DNA of 64,000 nucleotides, from contig NC_086108.1 in NCBI RefSeq assembly GCF_963921235.1, positions 90,088,001-90,152,000 of the forward strand. The letters run 5' to 3'. A program made the position numbers and the translations under genes. Numbering within the stretch: position 1 is the stretch's first letter; every line of letters starts with the position of its first letter. This document shows, piece after piece, positions 1 through 10,369 of the stretch. Source of the stretch: Mobula hypostoma. Lineage: Eukaryota. Below the pieces are notes generated by a model. It had not been told where the DNA came from, did not search any database, and saw nothing but the letters and a program-made list of their open reading frames with translations.

Positions 1-2830
1 TTTAATGTTATAGGCTAGCTTACTTTCGTATTCCATCTTTACCTTCTTATTGACCTTTTTAATTGCCTTCTATCAGTTTTTTAAAACTTCCCAATCCTCT
101 AATTTCCCATGAATATTTGCTCTATTATATGTCCCCTCTTTGGCTTTTATGTTGACTTTGATTTCTCTTGCTAGCCACAATTCTGTCATCTTGCCTTTAG
201 AATACTTCTTCCTCTTCAGGATGTATCTATCCTGTGCCTTCCGAATTGCTTCCAGAAATTCCAGCCATTGCTGCTCTGCCGTCATCCCTGCCAGTGTTCT
301 TTTCCAGTCAATTCTGGCCAAATCCTCTCTCATGCCTCTGTAATTCTCTTTACTCCACTATAAGACTGATACATCTGACTTTAGCTTGTTCTTAAATTTC
401 AGGATGAATTCGATTATATTATGATCACTTGTCCCGAAGGGTCCTTTTATCTGAAGCTCTCTAATCAATTTTGGTTCATTGCACAACACCCAATCCAGAA
501 TAGCTGATCCCCTTGTAGGCTCATCTTCGAGATACTCCAAAAAGCCATCTTATAGGTACTCTAGAAATTCTGCCCTCTTGGAATCCAGCACCAACCTAAT
601 TTTTCCAATCTACCTGCATATTGAAATCCCCCATGACTACTGTAACATTCCCCTTTAAGCATGCATTTTCTCTCTCCCATTATAATTTGTAGACCAGATC
701 CTTACGACTGTTTGGTGGTCTGTATATACTTCCTATCAGGGTCTTTTTACCCTTGCAGTTCATTAGCTGTATCCACAACGATTCAACCGTCTGACGCTAT
801 GTCACCTCTTTCTAATGATTTGAGTTAATTTTTTAGCAACAGAACAATGCCACAACCTCTACCTTTCTGCCAGTCCTTTCGATACAATGTGTATCCTTGG
901 ACATTAAGCTCCCAGCTGTAATCTTCCTTCAGACACAATTCAATGATGCCTACACATCATACCTGCCAATCTGCAAATGTGCGGCAAGTTCAACTCCCTT
1001 ATTCTGTATATTGCGCACTTTCAAATATAACAGCTTCAGTCGTGTATTCACCTTCTTTGATTTTGTCCATCTTTTACATTGCAACTCATCCTGTTGACTA
1101 TGACTTTGCCCACTCATCAACCTCTCCTTGCTAGGAGTCTCACTACACATTGCCTCTGTTTGTAAACCAACTACCTTTTACTCAGCACTATCACTTGGGT
1201 TCCCATTCCCCTGTCAAATTAATTGAAACACACCTTAACAACTATAGCTAAACTGCCTGCAAGGACATTGGACCCCTTCCTGTTCAGATGTAACCCTTCC
1301 TTATTGTACAGGTCATACCATCTCAGAAGAGATCCCAATAATCCACAAATCTTAACCCCTGCCTCTTGCACCTCAGCCAAACATTCACTTAAGTTATCCT
1401 ATCCTTACCCTTGCTAGCCATGGCACAGGCAGTAATCAGAGATTACTACCCTGCAGGTCCTGTTTTCTCAACTTTCTACCTAGCTCCCTAAAATCTCTCT
1501 TCAGGAGCTCCTCACCATGTCGACCTACATCATGTGTGCCAATATGTATCTAGATATCTGGCTGCTCACCCTTGCCCTTGAGAATGCAATGGACCCAATC
1601 TGAGAAATCCCTGATCCTGGCAGCAAGGAGGCAACATACCATCCAGGCGGGAGGAGAAGGTGGCGGCGCGACGCAGCCCGCAGCGGCCACGCCGGTGGTG
1701 ATGTCTGTTATTTGTCAAGTAGGATGCTGTGCACAATCCTGATTTGATGGAGATGGACTTGAGAGCACAGAGGAACATCTGGTGAAACTTCTGAAATGCC
1801 TGCTTTGCTGCTGCTGCTACTGTGTGGTCCAGAATCTCTGGAGGAGAAGGCCCTGAGTCCTTGGCTTTGCTTGTTGCTCGGCGGCCGGGGCGGGGTTGAA
1901 GCGCTCGGCAGAGGATGGTGCTCGGAGAGGCTGTGTCAGAGGGGCAGGTCGGAGGCTCGAAGTTTTCAGATGGACTTAGAGTCCACTGCGGTCGGGTGCT
2001 TCCAATGGTGCTGCATCGGCAAGTTGGCGGCACTTGGAGGTTCACGGCAGGGAGAGTTTCTCCCTTTTACCGTCTGCGTTAGATGATGAGTCTATCGGGA
2101 CTTTGAGACTTTTTTTTTACCGTGCCCGTGGTCTGCTCTTTATCAAATTATGGTATTGCTTTGCACTGTTGTAACTATATGTTATAATTATGTGGTTTTG
2201 TCAGTTTTAGTCTGGGTTTGTCCTGTGTTTTCTTGTGATATCATTCTGGAGGAAAGTTGTATCATTTTTTAATGCATGCATTTCTAAATGATAATAAATG
2301 AGGACTGAGTGTCCTCATAATCTAATCTAATCTAATCTAATCTAATCTAATGTGTCTACTTTGTCCACAGAACCTCACCTCTGTTCCTCAGATTATGGAA
2401 TCTCCTATCAACACTCCAGTCTTCTTCACCTCTCTGCTCTTCTGAGCCACAGCACAAGACTCAGTGCCAGAGACCCACTCACTGTGCCTCCCCTCAGTAG
2501 GTTATCCCCTCAATAGCATCTAAAGTTGTTTAATTATTATTGAGAGGAATGGCCACAGGTGTACTCAGCACTGACTGTGCATTTCCTCTCCTCCCCCTGA
2601 CAGTCTCCTGCAACCCAGGGGTGACTACCTCCCTGTAGCTCTTGTCCATCACTTTCTCATTCTCCCATATGAATTGAAGGTCATCGAGCTACAGTTCCAG
2701 TTCCTTAATACGTTCTCTCAGGAGCTGCAGCTCGGTGCACCTAGTGCAGATATGTTTCTGGAGGTCTCCCAGACTTCCCACATCCCGCACAGAGTACAGA
2801 AGACTGCCCCTGGAGCCATTCTCACTGAAC
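1..2830 (-). mobile_element. Degenerate CR1-clade LINE, 5' half (ORF1 remnant and ORF2 AP-endonuclease N-terminus), truncated by the window edge and interrupted at about 1647-2350
   Basis: Minus-strand fragments LKLLYLKVRNIQNK..GRYDV, EPTRGSAILDWVLCNEPKLI..GTSDHNII and IDWKRTLAGMTAEQQWLEFLEAI are CR1 endonuclease motifs. The region is collinear in reverse with the plus-strand copy at 31255-34830. Many stops and frameshifts. Confidence 0.85.
1647..2350 (+). mobile_element. Non-coding, probably non-autonomous LINE-mobilised element with (AATCT)n tail, inserted into CR1 ORF1
   Basis: GC/CpG-rich start (AAGGTGGCGGCGCGACG), AATAAA, a short GAGGAC/GTCCTC hairpin, then (AATCT)n to about 2350. CR1 ORF1 sequence resumes on both sides. 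No RT motif. Confidence 0.65.
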
Positions 2831-3021
2831 TACTGAACACTAAAAAATGCTGAATGAACAAACGAGAACAGAAAGAGAGTAACTTATGAGATACTTTACC
2901 TCACCCAAGCCTGATTTTGCCTGCCTGATGAGCCAAAGCCACGCTAAAGAATGACACACACAAAAGAATGGTCACTCCACTTCCACCTGCGTTACTTGTA
3001 TTCTCCCTTTCTAATGGATAC

Positions 3022-3412
3022 ATCTTGCTGATTGGTTACTCTTCAACACATAGAAACTGCAACAAAATTCTGCCTTTAAAATCTCTATCACTGTCCTGAT
3101 TAAAAGAGAGGGTGTTTTTTTTTTCACAAAGCTCTGGCTTTGATTGTCCACCTCAAAGAAAACTGCCACAAAGCTCTGCTTTTTAAATCTTGAACGGGGA
3201 CCTGACTGAAAAGTAGCTCTCTTGCTGATTGGTCGCTCCTCAACTCAGAGAAACAGCCACGAAACTCTGCCTTTAAAATCTTGATCGCCATCCTGATTAA
3301 AAGGTCGCTCTTATTACACAGCCCTGACTTTGATTGTCCTACTCAGAGAAAACTGCCATGAAGCTCTGCTTTTTAAATCTTGAATGCAGACGGGACTGAA
3401 CGGTAGCTCTTT
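3022..3412. repeat. Tandem duplication of a ~195-bp unit with internal sub-repeats, probably the 5' UTR of the adjacent CR1
   Basis: TCTTGCTGATTGGT...AAACTGCCA..AAGCTCTGCTTTTTAAATCTTGAA...GTAGCTCT occurs twice in register (about 3022-3218 and 3219-3412). Confidence 0.75.
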
Positions 3413-3482
3413 TTACGCACTGCCTGTATACAATAGAATAAATGAGGTTCGTCCATAGACATCGATGAAGACCTCAACACCA

Positions 3483-3624
3483 TTAGTACTTTTTACGAGG
3501 TTGAGTTGCTAGTTCGATGCTCAACCCAGCACAGATGGACAGCAGGCACGGGAGCCGGCCGGATTCGAACTCTGGACCTCTCACCCCAAAGTCCAGCGCT
3601 GATGCCACTACGCCAGCATCTGGC
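3483..3624 (-). mobile_element. tRNA-derived SINE (short or truncated) nested in the RTE-derived element
   Basis: Minus strand has a Pol III A box TGGCGTAGTGG and B box GAGTTCGAATCC in a tRNA-like head, followed by a non-tRNA body ending in an A-run. Confidence 0.8.
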
Positions 3625-3972
3625 TTGGTGGTGTTGAGACTAGTGCCTGATTTGGATTTAAGTGAGGGAGAGTTGCGCAGCGTCAGCCTCACTCTCTCTT
3701 CCCAATTCCCATCTGGAACCAGTGGCAAGACAAGAGTTGAGACGGCTGGAGATGGGACTAGGCGCAGTGGATGAGCAGGAAATCTTCTGTGTCTTGTCCT
3801 GCTCTACACGTTCCACGACACTTGCAGAGACCACCTTCTTGACCGTTGGACCTTCCATTGGTCTCGTCTGCTCAATCCTCCGGAGACGGTCTTCACATGC
3901 TGGGATAGACAGCGCCCTATCTCACCAAGGCTTTGCATGCATAGTTTGACTTATATTGCACATTGGTTACCA

Positions 3973-4163
3973 TCACCTGATTTAGCCGGCTTGTCGAAGC
4001 CGTTGCCCGAGGTGTGGCTGATGTCGCATGCAAACAGCTACAGGGAGCCACAGGTGAGAGCTGAGTGCCAAGTGGGGACCAAAGGTGGACAAACTGCCTT
4101 GAAAAGGACGCGACATGTTCCCCCACCAGAGGTGCTACCCCTCCCTGACACCCCATACACCCC
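3973..4163 (-). ncRNA. HDV-like (double-pseudoknot) self-cleaving ribozyme, predicted
   Basis: Minus strand: P1 GGGGUGU (4163-4157) with ACACCUC (4015-4009); P2 UCACCUG (4057-4051) with CAGGUGA (3979-3973); P3 GGC (4049-4047) with GCC (4018-4016); L3 starting UCC; GGG after P1' for P1.1; P4 CGGCUU-cgac-AAGCCG (4002-3987); J4/2 GCUAAAU with the catalytic-position C at 3985. Confidence 0.8.
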
Positions 4164-4174
4164 AGAATAAATGA

Positions 4175-4760
4175 AAAACTACATACAAATACTGACAAGC
4201 AACCAATGTGCAAAATAAGTCAAACTATGCATGCAAACAAGCAAGCAATAAATAAATAAATAAATGATTGATTGATTGATTGATTGATAGATAAAGAGAT
4301 AGATAAATAAGTGCTGACAATATGAGTTGTATAGTCCTTGAAACTGAATCCATAGGTTGTATTCAATGATCAGTTTAGTGTTGTGGTGAGTGAAGTTATC
4401 CACCCTGGTCAGGAATCTGATAGTTGAAGGGTAATAACTGTCCCTACACTTGGAGCTGTGGGACCTAAGGCTTCTCTACCTCCTTCCCAATATTATTAGC
4501 TGGAAGCGAGCATGGCCTAGTTGGTGGGGGCCCTTGAGATTTGATGCTGCTTTCTCATGGCAACACTCTGTGGATGTGCTCAGTGGAGGAGAGGGCTTTC
4601 CCTATGATGGACTGAGCTGTGTTCACCATTTTATGTCGGCATTTCAGTTCTTGGGCATTGGTGTTTCCATACTAGGCCATGATGGAACCAGTCAAGACAT
4701 TCTCCACTGTGCGTCTATAGAATTTTGTGTAAGTTATAGCTGACATGCTGAATCCATACA
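4175..4760 (-). mobile_element. Old Rex1/Babar-like LINE 3' fragment containing a compound tetranucleotide microsatellite (about 4237-4310)
   Basis: Similar to the 3' ends at 12485-13325 and 20976-21595 (GGAATCTGAT..GAAGG..CTGT..C, GGCTTCT.TACCTCCT.CC). Runs of AAGC/AAAT/GATT/GATA. Confidence 0.65.
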
Positions 4761-6374
4761 TACATCTCGTAGTGAGAGGGTTAATGAATGGTCATCAGCC
4801 AGGCAGTCTTGCCAAAGTTGCTGAATCTACTGAGTACTTCCAGCATCTTCAGCTTTTATTTGCAAGTTCCCTGTTGTACATTGCCATCAACGAATTTAAA
4901 CCACTATCTCCATTTTGTTTTGTCTCCTACTGTATGCAGCATCCACACTTCATTATTCAGATTGCAAGCAAACTGACTTAATTTTGGAATGAAATAAAAT
5001 GTGCGAATCTGTCCCTTCAAATTACTTGTGACCAGTACAAATTCACATGGAGAGAAGCCTACTCCTTCAGCTAATACGGCGCATATCGCTGTTGACTTAA
5101 TGGTCTACCATTCAGAAGAAGGAAGATTTATTTCACCTTCCTATCATTATGTCCGTCAGCCTCTCTCCATGAATGTGAATGCACCAGCTCAACAGTCTGA
5201 AACACATATTTTAAAGGAATTAATTCAGAACTTCACATCCAAGGCTGCAGATCATTTATTTTATAATGAGGCATTTAAATTCATTCTGAAATGTGATTGC
5301 TGAATTGCTGTCAGAATCTGCATCGATTGAGGTTTATAGGAAAATGCAGAACCACCTTTCAAATAATATTTTTACAGTATAATGCTAACATTTTAGTAAC
5401 AGCTACTTTTATCGGTGGCTATTAAAATAGGACACATTTAAGTCTGGATCAGATCTGTAAAACAGAAATTCCGAGGAAATGGTACATGTGACTTTTAGGA
5501 GATAAACCATAGTTTCTTTACTGAAGAAGAACTGCTAGTCATTTGTTCTGAATTGGCTGGATATTCATTTGCTTAATCAACACTGTTTGAGTTAATTTAT
5601 TTTCTCTCCTTCCCCAGTGTATGGATCTGCCATATTGTTCCAATAAATACAAGGATCTATTATTGGTGATGGTATGAAAATTTTCCTTTACTTTAAGCTA
5701 ATTAATACCATGCCTACTGTGTAGGAAAAAAAGCAGGACCTTCGATGTATGTTAATTGCATTGTCAAAACCTTAAAATGCAAAGAAGTAAAGTCTCGTAT
5801 TTTACTGATGTTCATTTATCCATTCCTGTGGGGGATGATCAGTCCCAACAGTGCTAGCCATAAATAAGTACTACATCGGCACTTTCTGCCTACTCTGCAC
5901 CACTCAGAGCTACTTCACAATAAAATATAGCAAATAATTTGGACTGTGTAATAATGTAAAGCAGGTGGTTTCAGATCTCTTATTGCTGTACAACTCATGA
6001 ATGTTATAACTGTGTTGATTTCAAAGGCAATAAGGTAAATTGGGAGAGATGAAAAATTAGCTTCCGATTTTCTATCCCCTTTCACAATACTGAACCAAGC
6101 CACTATCACACCCTTAGAATTTCAGCTTGATCTGATACAATCTGATGGCTAAACTGAAGGACGGCTGCATCTCTGCTGGCATCACAGAGGCTCTGTGGCG
6201 ACAATATTATGCCCTTATGTTGTCTCACCTGCAATGTAATCGCCAGCCCGTACAATGTCAGTTCAGCAGCCAAAACTCATTTCAATCTAATATTGCTGTA
6301 GGCTAAAGAGTTGAGCAACCATTTACGGCTGGTGGATCAAAAGACTGAAGGAAGTGTAGAGTGATCAAAAACTC

Positions 6375-7050
6375 TTCTGTGTGTCATAGAGTTGTGCAGC
6401 AGAGTAAAAGGCCCTTCAACCCATATGTTTCCATGCTGACCAAGATGCATATTCAAGCTAATCCCATTTCCCGGCACTTGGCTGATACATCTGCTATAAC
6501 TATCCACACACTTCTGAAATGTTTCTAATGTACCTGCCTTAACTACTTCCTTGGCAGCAGCTTCCACATGTCTACCACCTGCTGTTGAAAAATGCTGCCC
6601 CTTGGGTTCTAGTTAAACCATTCTTCTCGAATTTTAAAACTATATTCTCTTGTTTTTGCTTCCCCAAACTTGGAAAAAAGGCTCCTCATCCGATTGATTT
6701 TGAATATCTCTTAGTGTCCTACACGCTGTGGTGTAACGGCCCAACCTGCCTAACCTTTCCCTATAACTCAGTCCCTTGAGTCCTGGCAACATCCTTGTAT
6801 TTTTTTTCCCCCTCACATTCCAGTTTAATCATAACTCTCCTCCAGCAGGGTGACCAAACCTAAACCAAGTACTCCAAGTGTGGCCTCACCAACATTTAAT
6901 ACAATTACAACATAACCCCCCAATTCTATATTCAATGACTGAAGAAAGTTAGCACACCAGAAGCCTTCTTCAATTCCCTGTCGAGCCACGAGTCCATTTT
7001 AAGGGAAACAATGCACTGTAGTCCAAGGTTCTTCTACTCTACAATACCCA
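6375..7050 (-). mobile_element. Old CR1 LINE 3' fragment
   Basis: GTACTCCAAGTGTGGCCTCACCAA encodes the LVRPHLEY motif on the minus strand; the ORF fragment EVVKAGTLETFQKCVD matches the CR1 ORF2 C-terminus. Confidence 0.75.
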
Positions 7051-7464
7051 GGTGCTTCTGCTGAATGCAAAGGTTTTACTTTAATATGTCATTCATGAAT
7101 GTACACTTCACACTTATTCACACTTATTTCCACTTACTTGCATTTTCCTGAATTACATTCGTCAGCTCACCCACCTAGCCAGAAAACCCAACCATTATTT
7201 CAAGAAAGAAGGGAAATTATCTGTTCTTGGGGAATAAGGAAGATAAGCATCTACAGGTATTCTCGATCTTTCATTCTATTACTATTTTGTTTCTTTCTGT
7301 CATATTATTCTTATATTTTTAGGAGATCTAAACACGACATTTTCTATATAGAAGACAGTGGTTATCAGGAACAAATCTGCCAGAGGAGGTGCTGGAGACA
7401 GACATGATTCTAATGTTTATCTAATTCTAGGAGAAGTACTTGTTTAAGTATGCCTCATGATTAG

Positions 7465-8353
7465 TGTAACCGGGTGACCATTGGATCTTATTCAGTTTCG
7501 TTGAAAGTGTACTTAGGCATCCATCTGGGTAATGCTAGAATAGTTGTCTGTGCCTTTAAGGGAGATGGTGATGTCATTACGCATGCGTGGGATAGTGGGG
7601 AGACCATTCTGCTTTCTGCTGAAGACGTGGTAAGGCATTGGAATTGGGTTCCTCCCGAGACTGGGCATGGTGAGGAAAGGTGAGCATTAAATTGACAATA
7701 TCCATGTGAATTTGTTTATGCTTGTTGACGGATCGTGAATATCGGTAATTTGGCATGTTTTACATGTGAATGCTTTAGATTTCCACGAGTGAAGAAATCA
7801 ACGCTGGGTAGCGTGGCTTGGGCAAAGTTCCTCACCATCCAAGTAGGTCAGTCTTCCTGTAATTCAACTACCAGGCAATACCTTGCAAAAGTTGTGCCAA
7901 AGTGTACCTTTTGTCTAACTTTCTTGTATCCGGACTGATTGTGCATGTAACCGTGTAACGTGAATGTTTAGTCTCTGTTCGGAAGTTCAGCACGTGTGTA
8001 CGTCTTACATGAGATGTATTTGCTTACATTTTTCACTGTTATGTATGAAATGCAGGGTGGGTGGGATTCTAATGTTGTTTGTATTGTGTCCCTTCAGGAT
8101 TGCCACCACCCTATTTGTACCATATTAGTACTGTATTAGTTCTGGTATTTTTATACTACATACGTAATTCTGTTCATTCACAAGGGTGTGGATCGAAAGT
8201 TAAACTGAGATTGTAACGGCAAGAACTGGTTGTAAATTCGTTCGTTTTGTTTCACGACCCTCTTCTGGCACTTAAATATCGAAATCCGATAGAGGAATTA
8301 AAACCTGAAAAAAGTCTTTGTTGTCCTGAGTGTGTACTTTTCCCCAGGCTACA
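7465..8353. mobile_element. Solo LTR, probably Gypsy-type
   Basis: Starts TGTAACCGGG, ends CCAGGCTACA (TG...CA, imperfect inverted termini), with 4-bp TSD TTAG at 7461-7464 and 8354-8357. 889 bp, non-coding. Confidence 0.75.
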
Positions 8354-8639
8354 TTAGCATGAACGATTTAGGCTAGAAAGGCCCACTAGTCTACAATGTG
8401 TTTTACCATTCTATGTTCCTATGATTACAGTATCAGTCTTTTTTTCAATTACCTATTTAACGAAAGATTCAGGCTGAAACCCTATCTTCTTTTTATCCTC
8501 GATGAAGTAAAGTGTCGTGGCCCAAAATACCGACTGTTTCTTTCCTTCCATAGTTGCTGTCTGAATTGCTGAGTTTCTCCAGCACTTAGCGCATATTGCT
8601 TCTTTTTACCCCAAATGACTGTTATTTGATTTTAATATT

Positions 8640-9640
8640 TTCTACTTTTGGCTTTGCTTTGACAGCTTAAGCAATAAAATGATGTTCATTAGAAGAAAGG
8701 TTAAATAAACTGTAATTTAAAAGTGTCACCTGAGTCTGCATCCCTTATAGATTTTCATATTGAATTCCACAGTTTAGGAAGGTAGTTTATGAAAGCTGAT
8801 CTGCCAACTATCTTCTGAGGGAGAATGTTTAAATTTAAGACACAGGTGGAAGAAGAACCGATAGCTTGAGCAGGATTATAAAACAAAAGTGATTCTGTGA
8901 TATACTCTGGTCCCGGAACATTGAAAGTTTTATAAGAAAGTAAGAGAACTTTAAAATCAATTGTAAAATATACAGGAAGCCAATACGGAGTAGCTAGGGT
9001 GGGACAGATATACTTCCTCAACCTGGTTTTAGTGAAAAGTCTAGCAGTGGTGTGCTGAATAATTTGAAGTTTGTCAACAGATTGCTTTGGAAGGCCAGTA
9101 AAAAGTGCATTGCAAGTAACCTAGTATATGAAATATAAAGGCGTTAACTGATTTTTCAGCATCATTGCCTTTGCAATATTTCTTAAGTGCAAAAGTGTTC
9201 ACTTTCTTCATGTGAGCATTAATAGTCAAATCTGAATCAAGGGTAACACCCAGCTTTATTACTTCTGATCTTGCAAGGGGAGCCAAGTTCCCAAGTTTAT
9301 CAAGAAGTTTATCTCTAATGGTTTTGGGGCCAACCGGAGGTATTTCAGTTTTATCTTCATTTAGTTTTAGGAAATTGTTGCTCATCCATTTGTTTATTGC
9401 AGCCATATCAGAAGTCAGAGAACTACTGACACAATGAAGGAAGCCCTGAACACGGCCAGAGATGGAAGGCTGGCCTAAGCGGCAGCAGCACAATGGGCAG
9501 TAGAGAGAGACTAGAAGCCAGAGAAGATAGGGCATTATCATCATCAGGCTCAGGTGCCATTAGCATAACTGTGGAAATCAGTTTTCTGCTCTTTAATGAT
9601 GTGTCCTAAAAGGAGCGAGCGTAAGGAGACCAAGACAGAT
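8640..9640 (-). mobile_element. L2-clade LINE ORF2 3' fragment, degenerate
   Basis: Fragments FHSYANGT (YADD-equivalent), INKWMSNNFLKLNEDKTEI, KLGVTLDSDLT and YWLPVYFTIDFKVLLLSYK..GPEYI..PKLWNSI are typical of L2 RT and its C-terminus. Confidence 0.8.
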
Positions 9641-10369
9641 TCCCTGATTTGAAATATTAAAATGGAGATATTATTATAATTGAACCAATCTAAGGTATAG
9701 TGGATAAGTAGAACAACTATAAAACTTCCATTGATCATATTGATTTTTGACCCATATTTCCAAAAATAGCCAGAAGCCAGCCACAATTCGATTTCTGCAC
9801 AACACACTGCAATGCGTCAATATGGAAAGCAATGGAGGTCAATTACTGATCCTGACCTCCAGCCCCACTTCATCTAGAATTGTTTAATAATGTGCTGAGC
9901 TGAGGAAATGGATGCATTTCATATCTGGCTCCTTATCCTTCCATTATCTGCTGTAGCCAGGCCTGTTACACATGGGAGGGATTGCTTGCCTTCACTAAAC
10001 TAGTGAGTGAAAGTTAATTCATATTGATGTTTAAATGTACTTTCATGGATGTTTGTGGGTCTAAATTTCAAAATGTTTTATTTTTCAATAATTACTAAAA
10101 CAGATTTTAGTGATTTTGTTAGTCATCATTAAAGATGCTTAGAAGCAAGGAATAGGCCCCTGACTGTATGACTTATCAGAAGGCCCTCAAGGTGATCCAT
10201 GGGAAAGGGCTTTGTTGCCGTCTGTGGCCTGGCTGCTGCTTGTGAACTATTTATCTCACAGAGAGCCCACAGCAGCAGGACTGCCGGAATGCTGGGAGCT
10301 GCATTGCAGAAAGAAGTCACTTAAGCAACCTTCAAGGCACAATCCAGCCCCTTGTAGGTATTTTAAATA

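Follow-up and report, generated by a model that had tools for sequence, protein, structure and literature searches.

A non-coding RTE-derived element with a predicted 5'-terminal HDV-like ribozyme and predicted pairing of its 5' UTR with its 3' end

A 718-base insert on the minus strand (3446..4163) of the window, the whole 64,000-nucleotide stretch of Mobula hypostoma DNA analyzed here, raises the question of where an element of this kind comes from, what fixes its 5' end and how it reaches new sites. The analyses revealed a slightly worn copy of a repeated non-coding RTE-derived element. It is an internally deleted derivative of a 4.1-kb RTE of the same genome; its RNA would probably be cut from host read-through transcripts at G4163 by the predicted ribozyme and copied to new sites by the protein of the parent. 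This reading is supported by the observed parentage, the join between 5' UTR and 3' end, the variable target-site duplications (TSDs), the 5' ends at the first G of P1, the conservation of the fold and partial covariation.

Boundaries, parent and family of the insert

The insert is bracketed by an exact 11-nt direct repeat, as the initial annotation had described, with one copy at the 3' end of the element (3435..3445; family D8, 100%) and the other (4164..4174) adjoining the first G of P1 at 4163, which thus lies at the insertion boundary. There is no long open reading frame; in the six frames, the longest Met-started frame has 85 amino acids and the longest stop-free stretch 129 amino acids. 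ARAGORN returned no tRNA genes over the window. Beside the element, at 3023-3410, a unit of ~190 bp is duplicated in tandem with 79% matches.

The autonomous RTE sharing both ends, whose existence had been predicted, was found in the same genome (RTE-B). One copy of it, L227, has 4,095 bp and an open frame of 1,109 amino acids with the domains PF03372 and PF00078 (endonuclease-RT), and aligned with the window element at 87% over bases 1-538, gaps counted, and at 89% over bases 672-717. Parent and element have the first ~516 and the last ~47 bases in common, and several full-length parent copies showed 92-95% identity to the short-form consensus over ~520 nt. With a parent common to both ends and a 5' end at the predicted cut site, the proposed assignment as a non-autonomous, RTE-derived element was upheld. 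The RTE clade label itself is suggested by the single APE-RT frame and by the by-eye similarity of the UTR to segments of RTE-3_AMi and RTE-1_PSi in the supplement of Kojima (2018). Two other candidate parents were rejected: RTE-A (L151-L210, L230), which has a related tail and 77% identity over part of the UTR, lacks the ribozyme and has a different end helix, and the family L041-L060, whose ends are unrelated. The latter is a further abundant RTE-like LINE family (9,458 candidates, 150 scored).

The element retains more of its parent than the ribozyme and the 3' tail, to which the initial annotation had reduced it. Following the predicted ribozyme (3973..4163, minus strand; ~190 nt, the 5' part of the element), there are ~330 further nt of the parent's 5' UTR, of which ~500 nt are present altogether; the remainder of this UTR (3626..3931, minus strand) resembles by eye RTE-3_AMi 147-292 and RTE-1_PSi 27-196. 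It is followed by the head (135 nt) of an independent tRNA-type SINE (3490..3624, minus strand), with A- and B-box-like motifs by eye, and by the parent's 3' end (3446..3492, minus strand), which carries a terminal stem-loop (3472-3451) with one pair broken in the window copy. This stem-loop is likely the RT recognition site. Just 3' of P2, the element sequence is replaced by a 37-nt inverted copy (3932..3968) of the flank 4201-4237 (97%), which is absent from the other aligned copies of the family.

Searching the first 189 nt of the element against its own genome gave 2,483 candidate matches, which are not copy numbers; the 40 that were scored had 95-97% identity, the query itself apart. Among 29 other copies examined, 26 were of a ~558-bp form, two were as long as the window copy and one ended early, while a query with the 3' part gave 40 matches of a ~700-bp form, 30 of which were examined. 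The window copy thus belongs to the long form of F1, a family of bipartite, non-autonomous RTE elements. Mean divergence from the consensus was 3.2% for the short form (26 best matches, hence biased low) and 5.7% for the long form (16 copies). TSDs of 7-17 nt were present in 25 of 40 copies, as compared to 42 of 1,560 mismatched-flank controls, and the upstream flanks were unrelated between copies, so that F1 consists of dispersed ORF-less copies with variable TSDs, as in other bipartite non-autonomous RTEs. The family was also present in contigs of sequencing runs from four studies; viral contigs showed neither a pattern match nor a related protein. One copy (L025) is flanked by LTR-retroelement or retrovirus-like pol frames.

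The initial annotation had set the size of the element at about 540 bp without later inserts. The tRNA-like piece proved to be a subfamily mark, not private to the window copy, and the long form is not the ~558-bp form plus a later insert, since the long subfamily retains ~8 more bases of the parent's 3' end. Because of these extra bases and the SINE head between the two parts, the long form likely arose separately, by template switching. The same head occurs outside F1 with other tails (L223, L194, L192). The element does not have the small-RNA-derived 5' head of a Pol III SINE, the tRNA-like piece being internal and missing from the short form.

The same 5' fold was found in further lineages. 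A metagenome pattern scan gave 30 matches, of which 28 were unrelated and dropped; the two retained records, L125 and L136, are full-length RTEs with endonuclease-RT frames of 1,109 and 1,096 amino acids. Queries with their proteins recovered four related RTE families from the own genome. The same 5' fold is carried by RTE-C, by RTE-D and by F2, a short family of greater age, for which no parent was found. In 12 of 30 F2 copies (L091, L093-L096, L098, L104, L107, L110, L116, L119, L120) both flanks are shared, mostly without the first three G of P1, and a single F2 copy was therefore likely amplified as a passenger inside another repeat. RTE-A is abundant in the same genome, and the ribozyme is missing in 29 of its 30 loci, indicating that the clade can spread without it. 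In RTE-A (L151-L180, L230:291-524), there are several open frames of >1,000 amino acids and variable G+C-rich 5' ends in place of the ribozyme, and in one variant a 78-codon piece matches Pfam Glyoxalase_4 (E 8.7e-11), which looks like captured host coding sequence.

The predicted ribozyme fold and the 5' starts

On the minus strand, the 5' part of the window copy folds into P1 (4163-4157/4015-4009; 7 bp including one G-U), P2 (4057-4051/3979-3973), P3 (4049-4047/4018-4016), P1.1 (4045-4044/4008-4007) and P4 (4002-3997/3992-3987), in the order of the HDV-like nested double pseudoknot. All helices were found where the initial annotation had placed them; what it had overlooked is that L3 has 28 nt with an inserted hairpin (4020..4038, minus strand; one pair broken in the window copy), in contrast to the canonical 7-8 nt. 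This long L3 with its hairpin is common to six lineages. The stem proposed for J1/2 is present and bigger than described, forming a structured domain (4063..4153, minus strand) of P1.2 (4153-4144/4072-4063) and inner helices, with two two-sided changes and a pair probability of 0.98. A second copy of the P1 5' strand (4148..4154, minus strand), mostly within the J1/2 stem, provides a predicted alternative cut site.

The key bases are U 4046 and G 4041 of L3, predicted to form the reverse wobble, the predicted catalytic C 3985, and A 3982. The U and G are five apart; the G is replaced by A in a minority of copies (a CpG site in RTE-C), and an eight-copy RTE-C consensus has A. In J4/2, the catalytic C and the conserved A are invariant across the six lineages. 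The base after the catalytic C is U or C here; the descriptor of PMC6326823, in the part available, has a purine at this position, and the Rfam HDV-F-prausnitzii consensus has U. The L3 hairpin is placed on the 3' side of the two bases, U and G, whose reverse wobble is known from characterized ribozymes, so the active site could be intact. In the window copy, none of the 25 core pairs is lost and the key unpaired bases are retained, but the L3 hairpin, the P2 extension and the 3' stem-loop are each interrupted; this copy may thus still cut, although a role as source copy is unlikely. The loop of the L3 hairpin (4025-4033 in the window, and its homologues) holds a palindromic hexamer in four lineages and another palindrome in L125, with no palindrome in RTE-D and most F2 copies; such palindromes could mediate dimer contacts.

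A relaxed HDV descriptor matched only this element in the 64-kb window, in the two registers G4163 and G4154, and none of 3,000 dinucleotide shuffles of the 718 nt, a count that is not a blind P value because the descriptor was composed after the sequence had been seen and was relaxed to fit it. With L3 restricted to ≤8 nt, the same descriptor gave no matches. Rfam models gave four chance-level matches in window positions 1-10000, none on the element, and the only match to a 281-nt consensus-like copy was HDV-F-prausnitzii (13.2 bits, E 4.6, versus a gathering score of 44).

Conservation was analyzed in an alignment of seven rows, comprising one near-consensus representative of each of six lineages and the window copy. 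Of its 314 cells, 96.2% were paired, as compared to 36-49% in slid controls, and the helices are therefore conserved across RTE lineages. Two-sided changes occurred at five pairs (one in P1, two in J1/2 and two in P4) versus 1.5 in shuffles (0 of 500), and consensus rows showed three two-sided pairs in P4. The covariation sought in P1-P4 was thus obtained for P1 and P4 and was missing from P2 and P3, which are almost invariant and so provide none. The L3 hairpin was 93% paired in all six lineages, with one-sided changes only. Over the six lineages, invariant columns made up 17 of 18 in P2-P3-UCC, 6 of 7 in J4/2 and 10 of 11 in the 3' strand of P2, and outside the core 30 of 95 in J1/2 and 34-44% in the downstream UTR. 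RTE-C has a mismatch at P1 pair 7. Among near full-length long-form copies, the core was fully intact, with every pair and base, in one of 15, as expected from decay after insertion.

Start positions were counted in sets not selected by their 5' end, the long form having been collected by its 3' part and RTE-B by its endonuclease. The starts clustered at base 1, the first G of P1, as anticipated. Long-form copies (n=29) began at base 1 in 11 cases, at bases 2-5 in five, at 9-12 in one and further in in 12; RTE-B copies (n=16) at base 1 in four, at 2-5 in two, at 6-12 in two and further in in six, two having no 5' UTR match; RTE-C copies (n=23) at base 1 in three, at 2-5 in four, at 6-8 in four, at 9-12 in five and further in in one, with six lacking a match; and RTE-D copies (n=11) at base 1 in five, at 2-5 in two and at 9-12 in one, with three lacking a match. 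The TSD adjoined base 1 in 17 of 30 TSD-bearing copies and was separated from it by 1-4 extra bases in 13, and the base preceding base 1 varied with the target. The starts around base 10 are consistent with use of the second P1 strand, in agreement with the duplicated-P1 model for R2 (PMC3774820, in part), but microhomology could have the same effect. The base before base 1 was T in 34 of 47 copies (three of them misanchored at base 10), versus 38% T in the flank. Two copies (L024, L029) carry a repeat of the element's initial 7-9 bases upstream of base 1; the doubled P1 strand may have originated in this way.

Other explanations of this conserved 5' end have to be weighed. Precise 5' starts can also be set by internal promoters, as established in L1-type LINEs, and an internal RNA polymerase II promoter could define the end here, the fold being non-catalytic or vestigial and serving RNA stability, protein binding or translation. 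The non-canonical insert in L3 and the spread of RTE-A with GC-rich replacement 5' ends fit such a promoter. It is nevertheless unlikely, given that six lineages conserve the very unpaired bases that are relevant to catalysis, namely U and G in L3 and C and A in J4/2 (Yamagami, 2018, in the portion available), and that the start coincides with base 1 of P1, a minority of starts lying in the second P1 register at bases 9-12 (5 of 23 RTE-C loci). That the region acts as a promoter in DNA and as a ribozyme in RNA, without dependence on read-through, is somewhat less improbable and still doubtful. Both functions are described for Pr77 of L1Tc/NARTc in the accessible part of PMC4035085, and the dispersed candidate matches, which number in the thousands, suggest that source copies are readily transcribed; against this, R2 SIDEs depend on co-transcription according to the part of PMC3414825 consulted. 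A chance HDV-like match in a G+C-rich repeat would agree with the folding z-score of the element, only -1.37, and with a descriptor relaxed to fit, but is very improbable in view of the 0 of 3,000 shuffles, the two-sided changes across lineages and the position at the exact 5' end.

Predicted pairing between the 5' UTR and the 3' end

In the short F1 copies, the junction between the two parent-derived parts forms a hairpin of 12 bp; in the parent, its two arms are separated by ~3.5 kb. In the window copy, the corresponding predicted helix has its 5' arm at 3629..3638 and its 3' arm at 3473..3482 (minus strand), with the SINE head in the loop. The pairing was examined in six autonomous lineages (consensus sequences for four, single records for L125 and L136) by comparing the 32 nt behind a conserved 5'-UTR motif with the 32 nt before the 3' stem-loop. 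Duplex prediction showed pairing in all six, at -13 to -26 kcal/mol, and 1, 11, 0, 0, 0 and 0 of 2,000 shuffles, respectively, were as good. The arm sequences differ widely among lineages, and the cognate 3' arm was the best partner in five of the six, the exception being RTE-A, whose arm is like that of L125. By eye, this pairing can also be traced in the Repbase segments of RTE-3_AMi and RTE-1_PSi given in the Kojima supplement, with one two-sided change between the two. When duplexes were scanned over the whole element in three copies of the parent, the energy rank of the end helix was 73 among 380 windows, 132 among 378 and 18 among 377; the support for it therefore comes from position and covariation and not from strength. 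The terminal stem-loop next to it, described for plant RTEs in the consulted part of PMC6007223, folds in all six lineages with compensating changes. Matching changes in both helix arms of the window copy were rejected as covariation, as they are CpG sites that occur separately in other copies, and a reading of the F2 junction as a hairpin in its own right was dropped after comparison with RTE-D and L136.

The junctions of short derivatives map to the loop in most F1 copies and in L296, to the interior of the stem on both arms in L282, and to the base in L281, L283, L290 and L299; on both sides the deletions end within about 25 nt of the end-helix arms. Several loop variants exist within F1. 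What appears to be new here is this 5'-UTR segment, complementary to the 3' end ~3.5 kb away in six autonomous lineages and lineage-specific in sequence, together with deletions in or at the base of the predicted helix. In the full-length parent, the pairing would bring two conserved motifs together, and the short forms likely derive from the reverse transcriptase skipping across the helix. The same clustering could also arise by selection, if only short elements with both flanking motifs amplified well and no skipping occurred. This possibility deserves serious consideration, as forms that join both motifs directly without the helix were also amplified (L281, L283, L290, L299, and F2 by analogy); it is nonetheless less than probable, as the junctions fall in the loop, in the stem of both arms or at the base, always close to the arms, and the loop varies within F1. 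The helix is not needed as such, since several short forms without it have also spread.

Tentatively, and with slightly less than even confidence, we propose that RTEs of this group are clasped end to end, the covarying helix forming a composite protein site with the ORF looped out, and that their RNA is headed by an active HDV-like ribozyme whose architecture, with a hairpin in L3, is new and is missed by standard models. By letting the reverse transcriptase skip the loop, such a clasp would explain why RTE, unlike most LINE clades, repeatedly yields bipartite elements and SINE bodies. The RTE-derived 5' and 3' parts of CoeSINE4 and SINE2_Gav (Kojima, 2018, supplement) also meet, by eye, in the loops of short hairpins, a hint that other RTE groups may share the end helix.

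Proposed mobilization and relation to known elements

Under the favored reading, a host transcript would read through a source copy, the predicted ribozyme would cut 5' of base 1, the protein of the parent would bind the joined 5'/3' structure and the copy would be inserted by target-primed reverse transcription. Self-cleavage and transcription from host promoters would both be part of this process, and mobilization in trans is suggested by the 3' stem-loop common to parent and derivative and by their similar copy divergence.

The type of element is already known, both as bipartite non-autonomous RTEs and as the ribozyme-headed SIDEs of R2. Bipartite ORF-less RTEs include RTESINE1/2, WALLSI3, MAR4_MD, RTE-N2_Lch and Bov-A, and a 5' ribozyme is predicted for several RTEs (Kojima, 2018, PMC5786205, in the portions covered). 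Like these, F1 joins an RTE 5' UTR to a 3' end, and its body and tail resemble RTE-3_AMi and RTE-1_PSi by eye; neither a ribozyme fold nor a 5'-3' pairing is given for them in the same portions, where the bias of internally deleted derivatives to few LINE clades is called unexplained. HDV-like ribozymes at RTE 5' ends are credited to Ruminski (2011) in the accessible parts of PMC5786205, PMC6765202 and PMC7761336, and twister variants are described, in the part of the source available, as heading the RTE Perere-3.

Among ribozyme-headed elements, NARTc, RIME and SIDER are likewise non-autonomous LINE derivatives that begin with an HDV-like ribozyme, whereas their Pr77 is a compact 77 nt and belongs to the L1Tc/ingi clade, in contrast to the ~190-nt F1 ribozyme with its large J1/2 and L3 inserts (PMC4035085, in part). 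The closest likeness in J1/2 and P2 noted here is to drz-Agam-2-1, which has a structured J1/2 (P1.2) and an extended P2 (12 bp, as compared to 11 predicted here); unlike in the F1 ribozyme, no L3 hairpin is described for it in the portion of Webb (2016, PMC4908430) covered. The literature search, mainly of open articles, brought up no paper that describes an HDV-like ribozyme with a hairpin in L3, or the F1 family in sharks or rays. It returned none on 5'-3' UTR pairing in RTE, at mostly title level and with 13 of the 15 parts of the Kojima supplement covered by five motifs only.

If an HDV-like ribozyme with an L3 hairpin is active, the descriptor of the family would have to be widened, and many copies in animal genomes would have been missed by Rfam-type searches. 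A conserved 5'-3' helix, if true, would offer a testable answer to the question of Kojima (2018) concerning the few clades, and would bear on RTE-based gene-insertion systems, in which both cognate UTRs are placed on the template RNA (PMC13708176, in part).

F1 resembles the R2 SIDEs and the R2/R1 hybrid SIDEs in being short, internally deleted and headed by an HDV-like ribozyme (Eickbush and Eickbush, 2012, PMC3414825). The ribozymes of R2 SIDEs were shown to self-cleave, and these elements are mobilized by the protein of their parent, according to the part of that article available. R2 is site-specific in 28S rDNA, whereas F1 is dispersed, has TSDs of 7-17 nt and derives from an APE-type RTE. 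A hybrid form comparable to the R2/R1 SIDEs was observed in 13 of 20 short copies of RTE-D type (L284-L288, L291-L295, L297, L298, L300); the donor of their tail was not found, and their ribozyme-bearing 5' portion, the first ~385 nt, continues into another body and another tail, the ends being of (ACG)n type.
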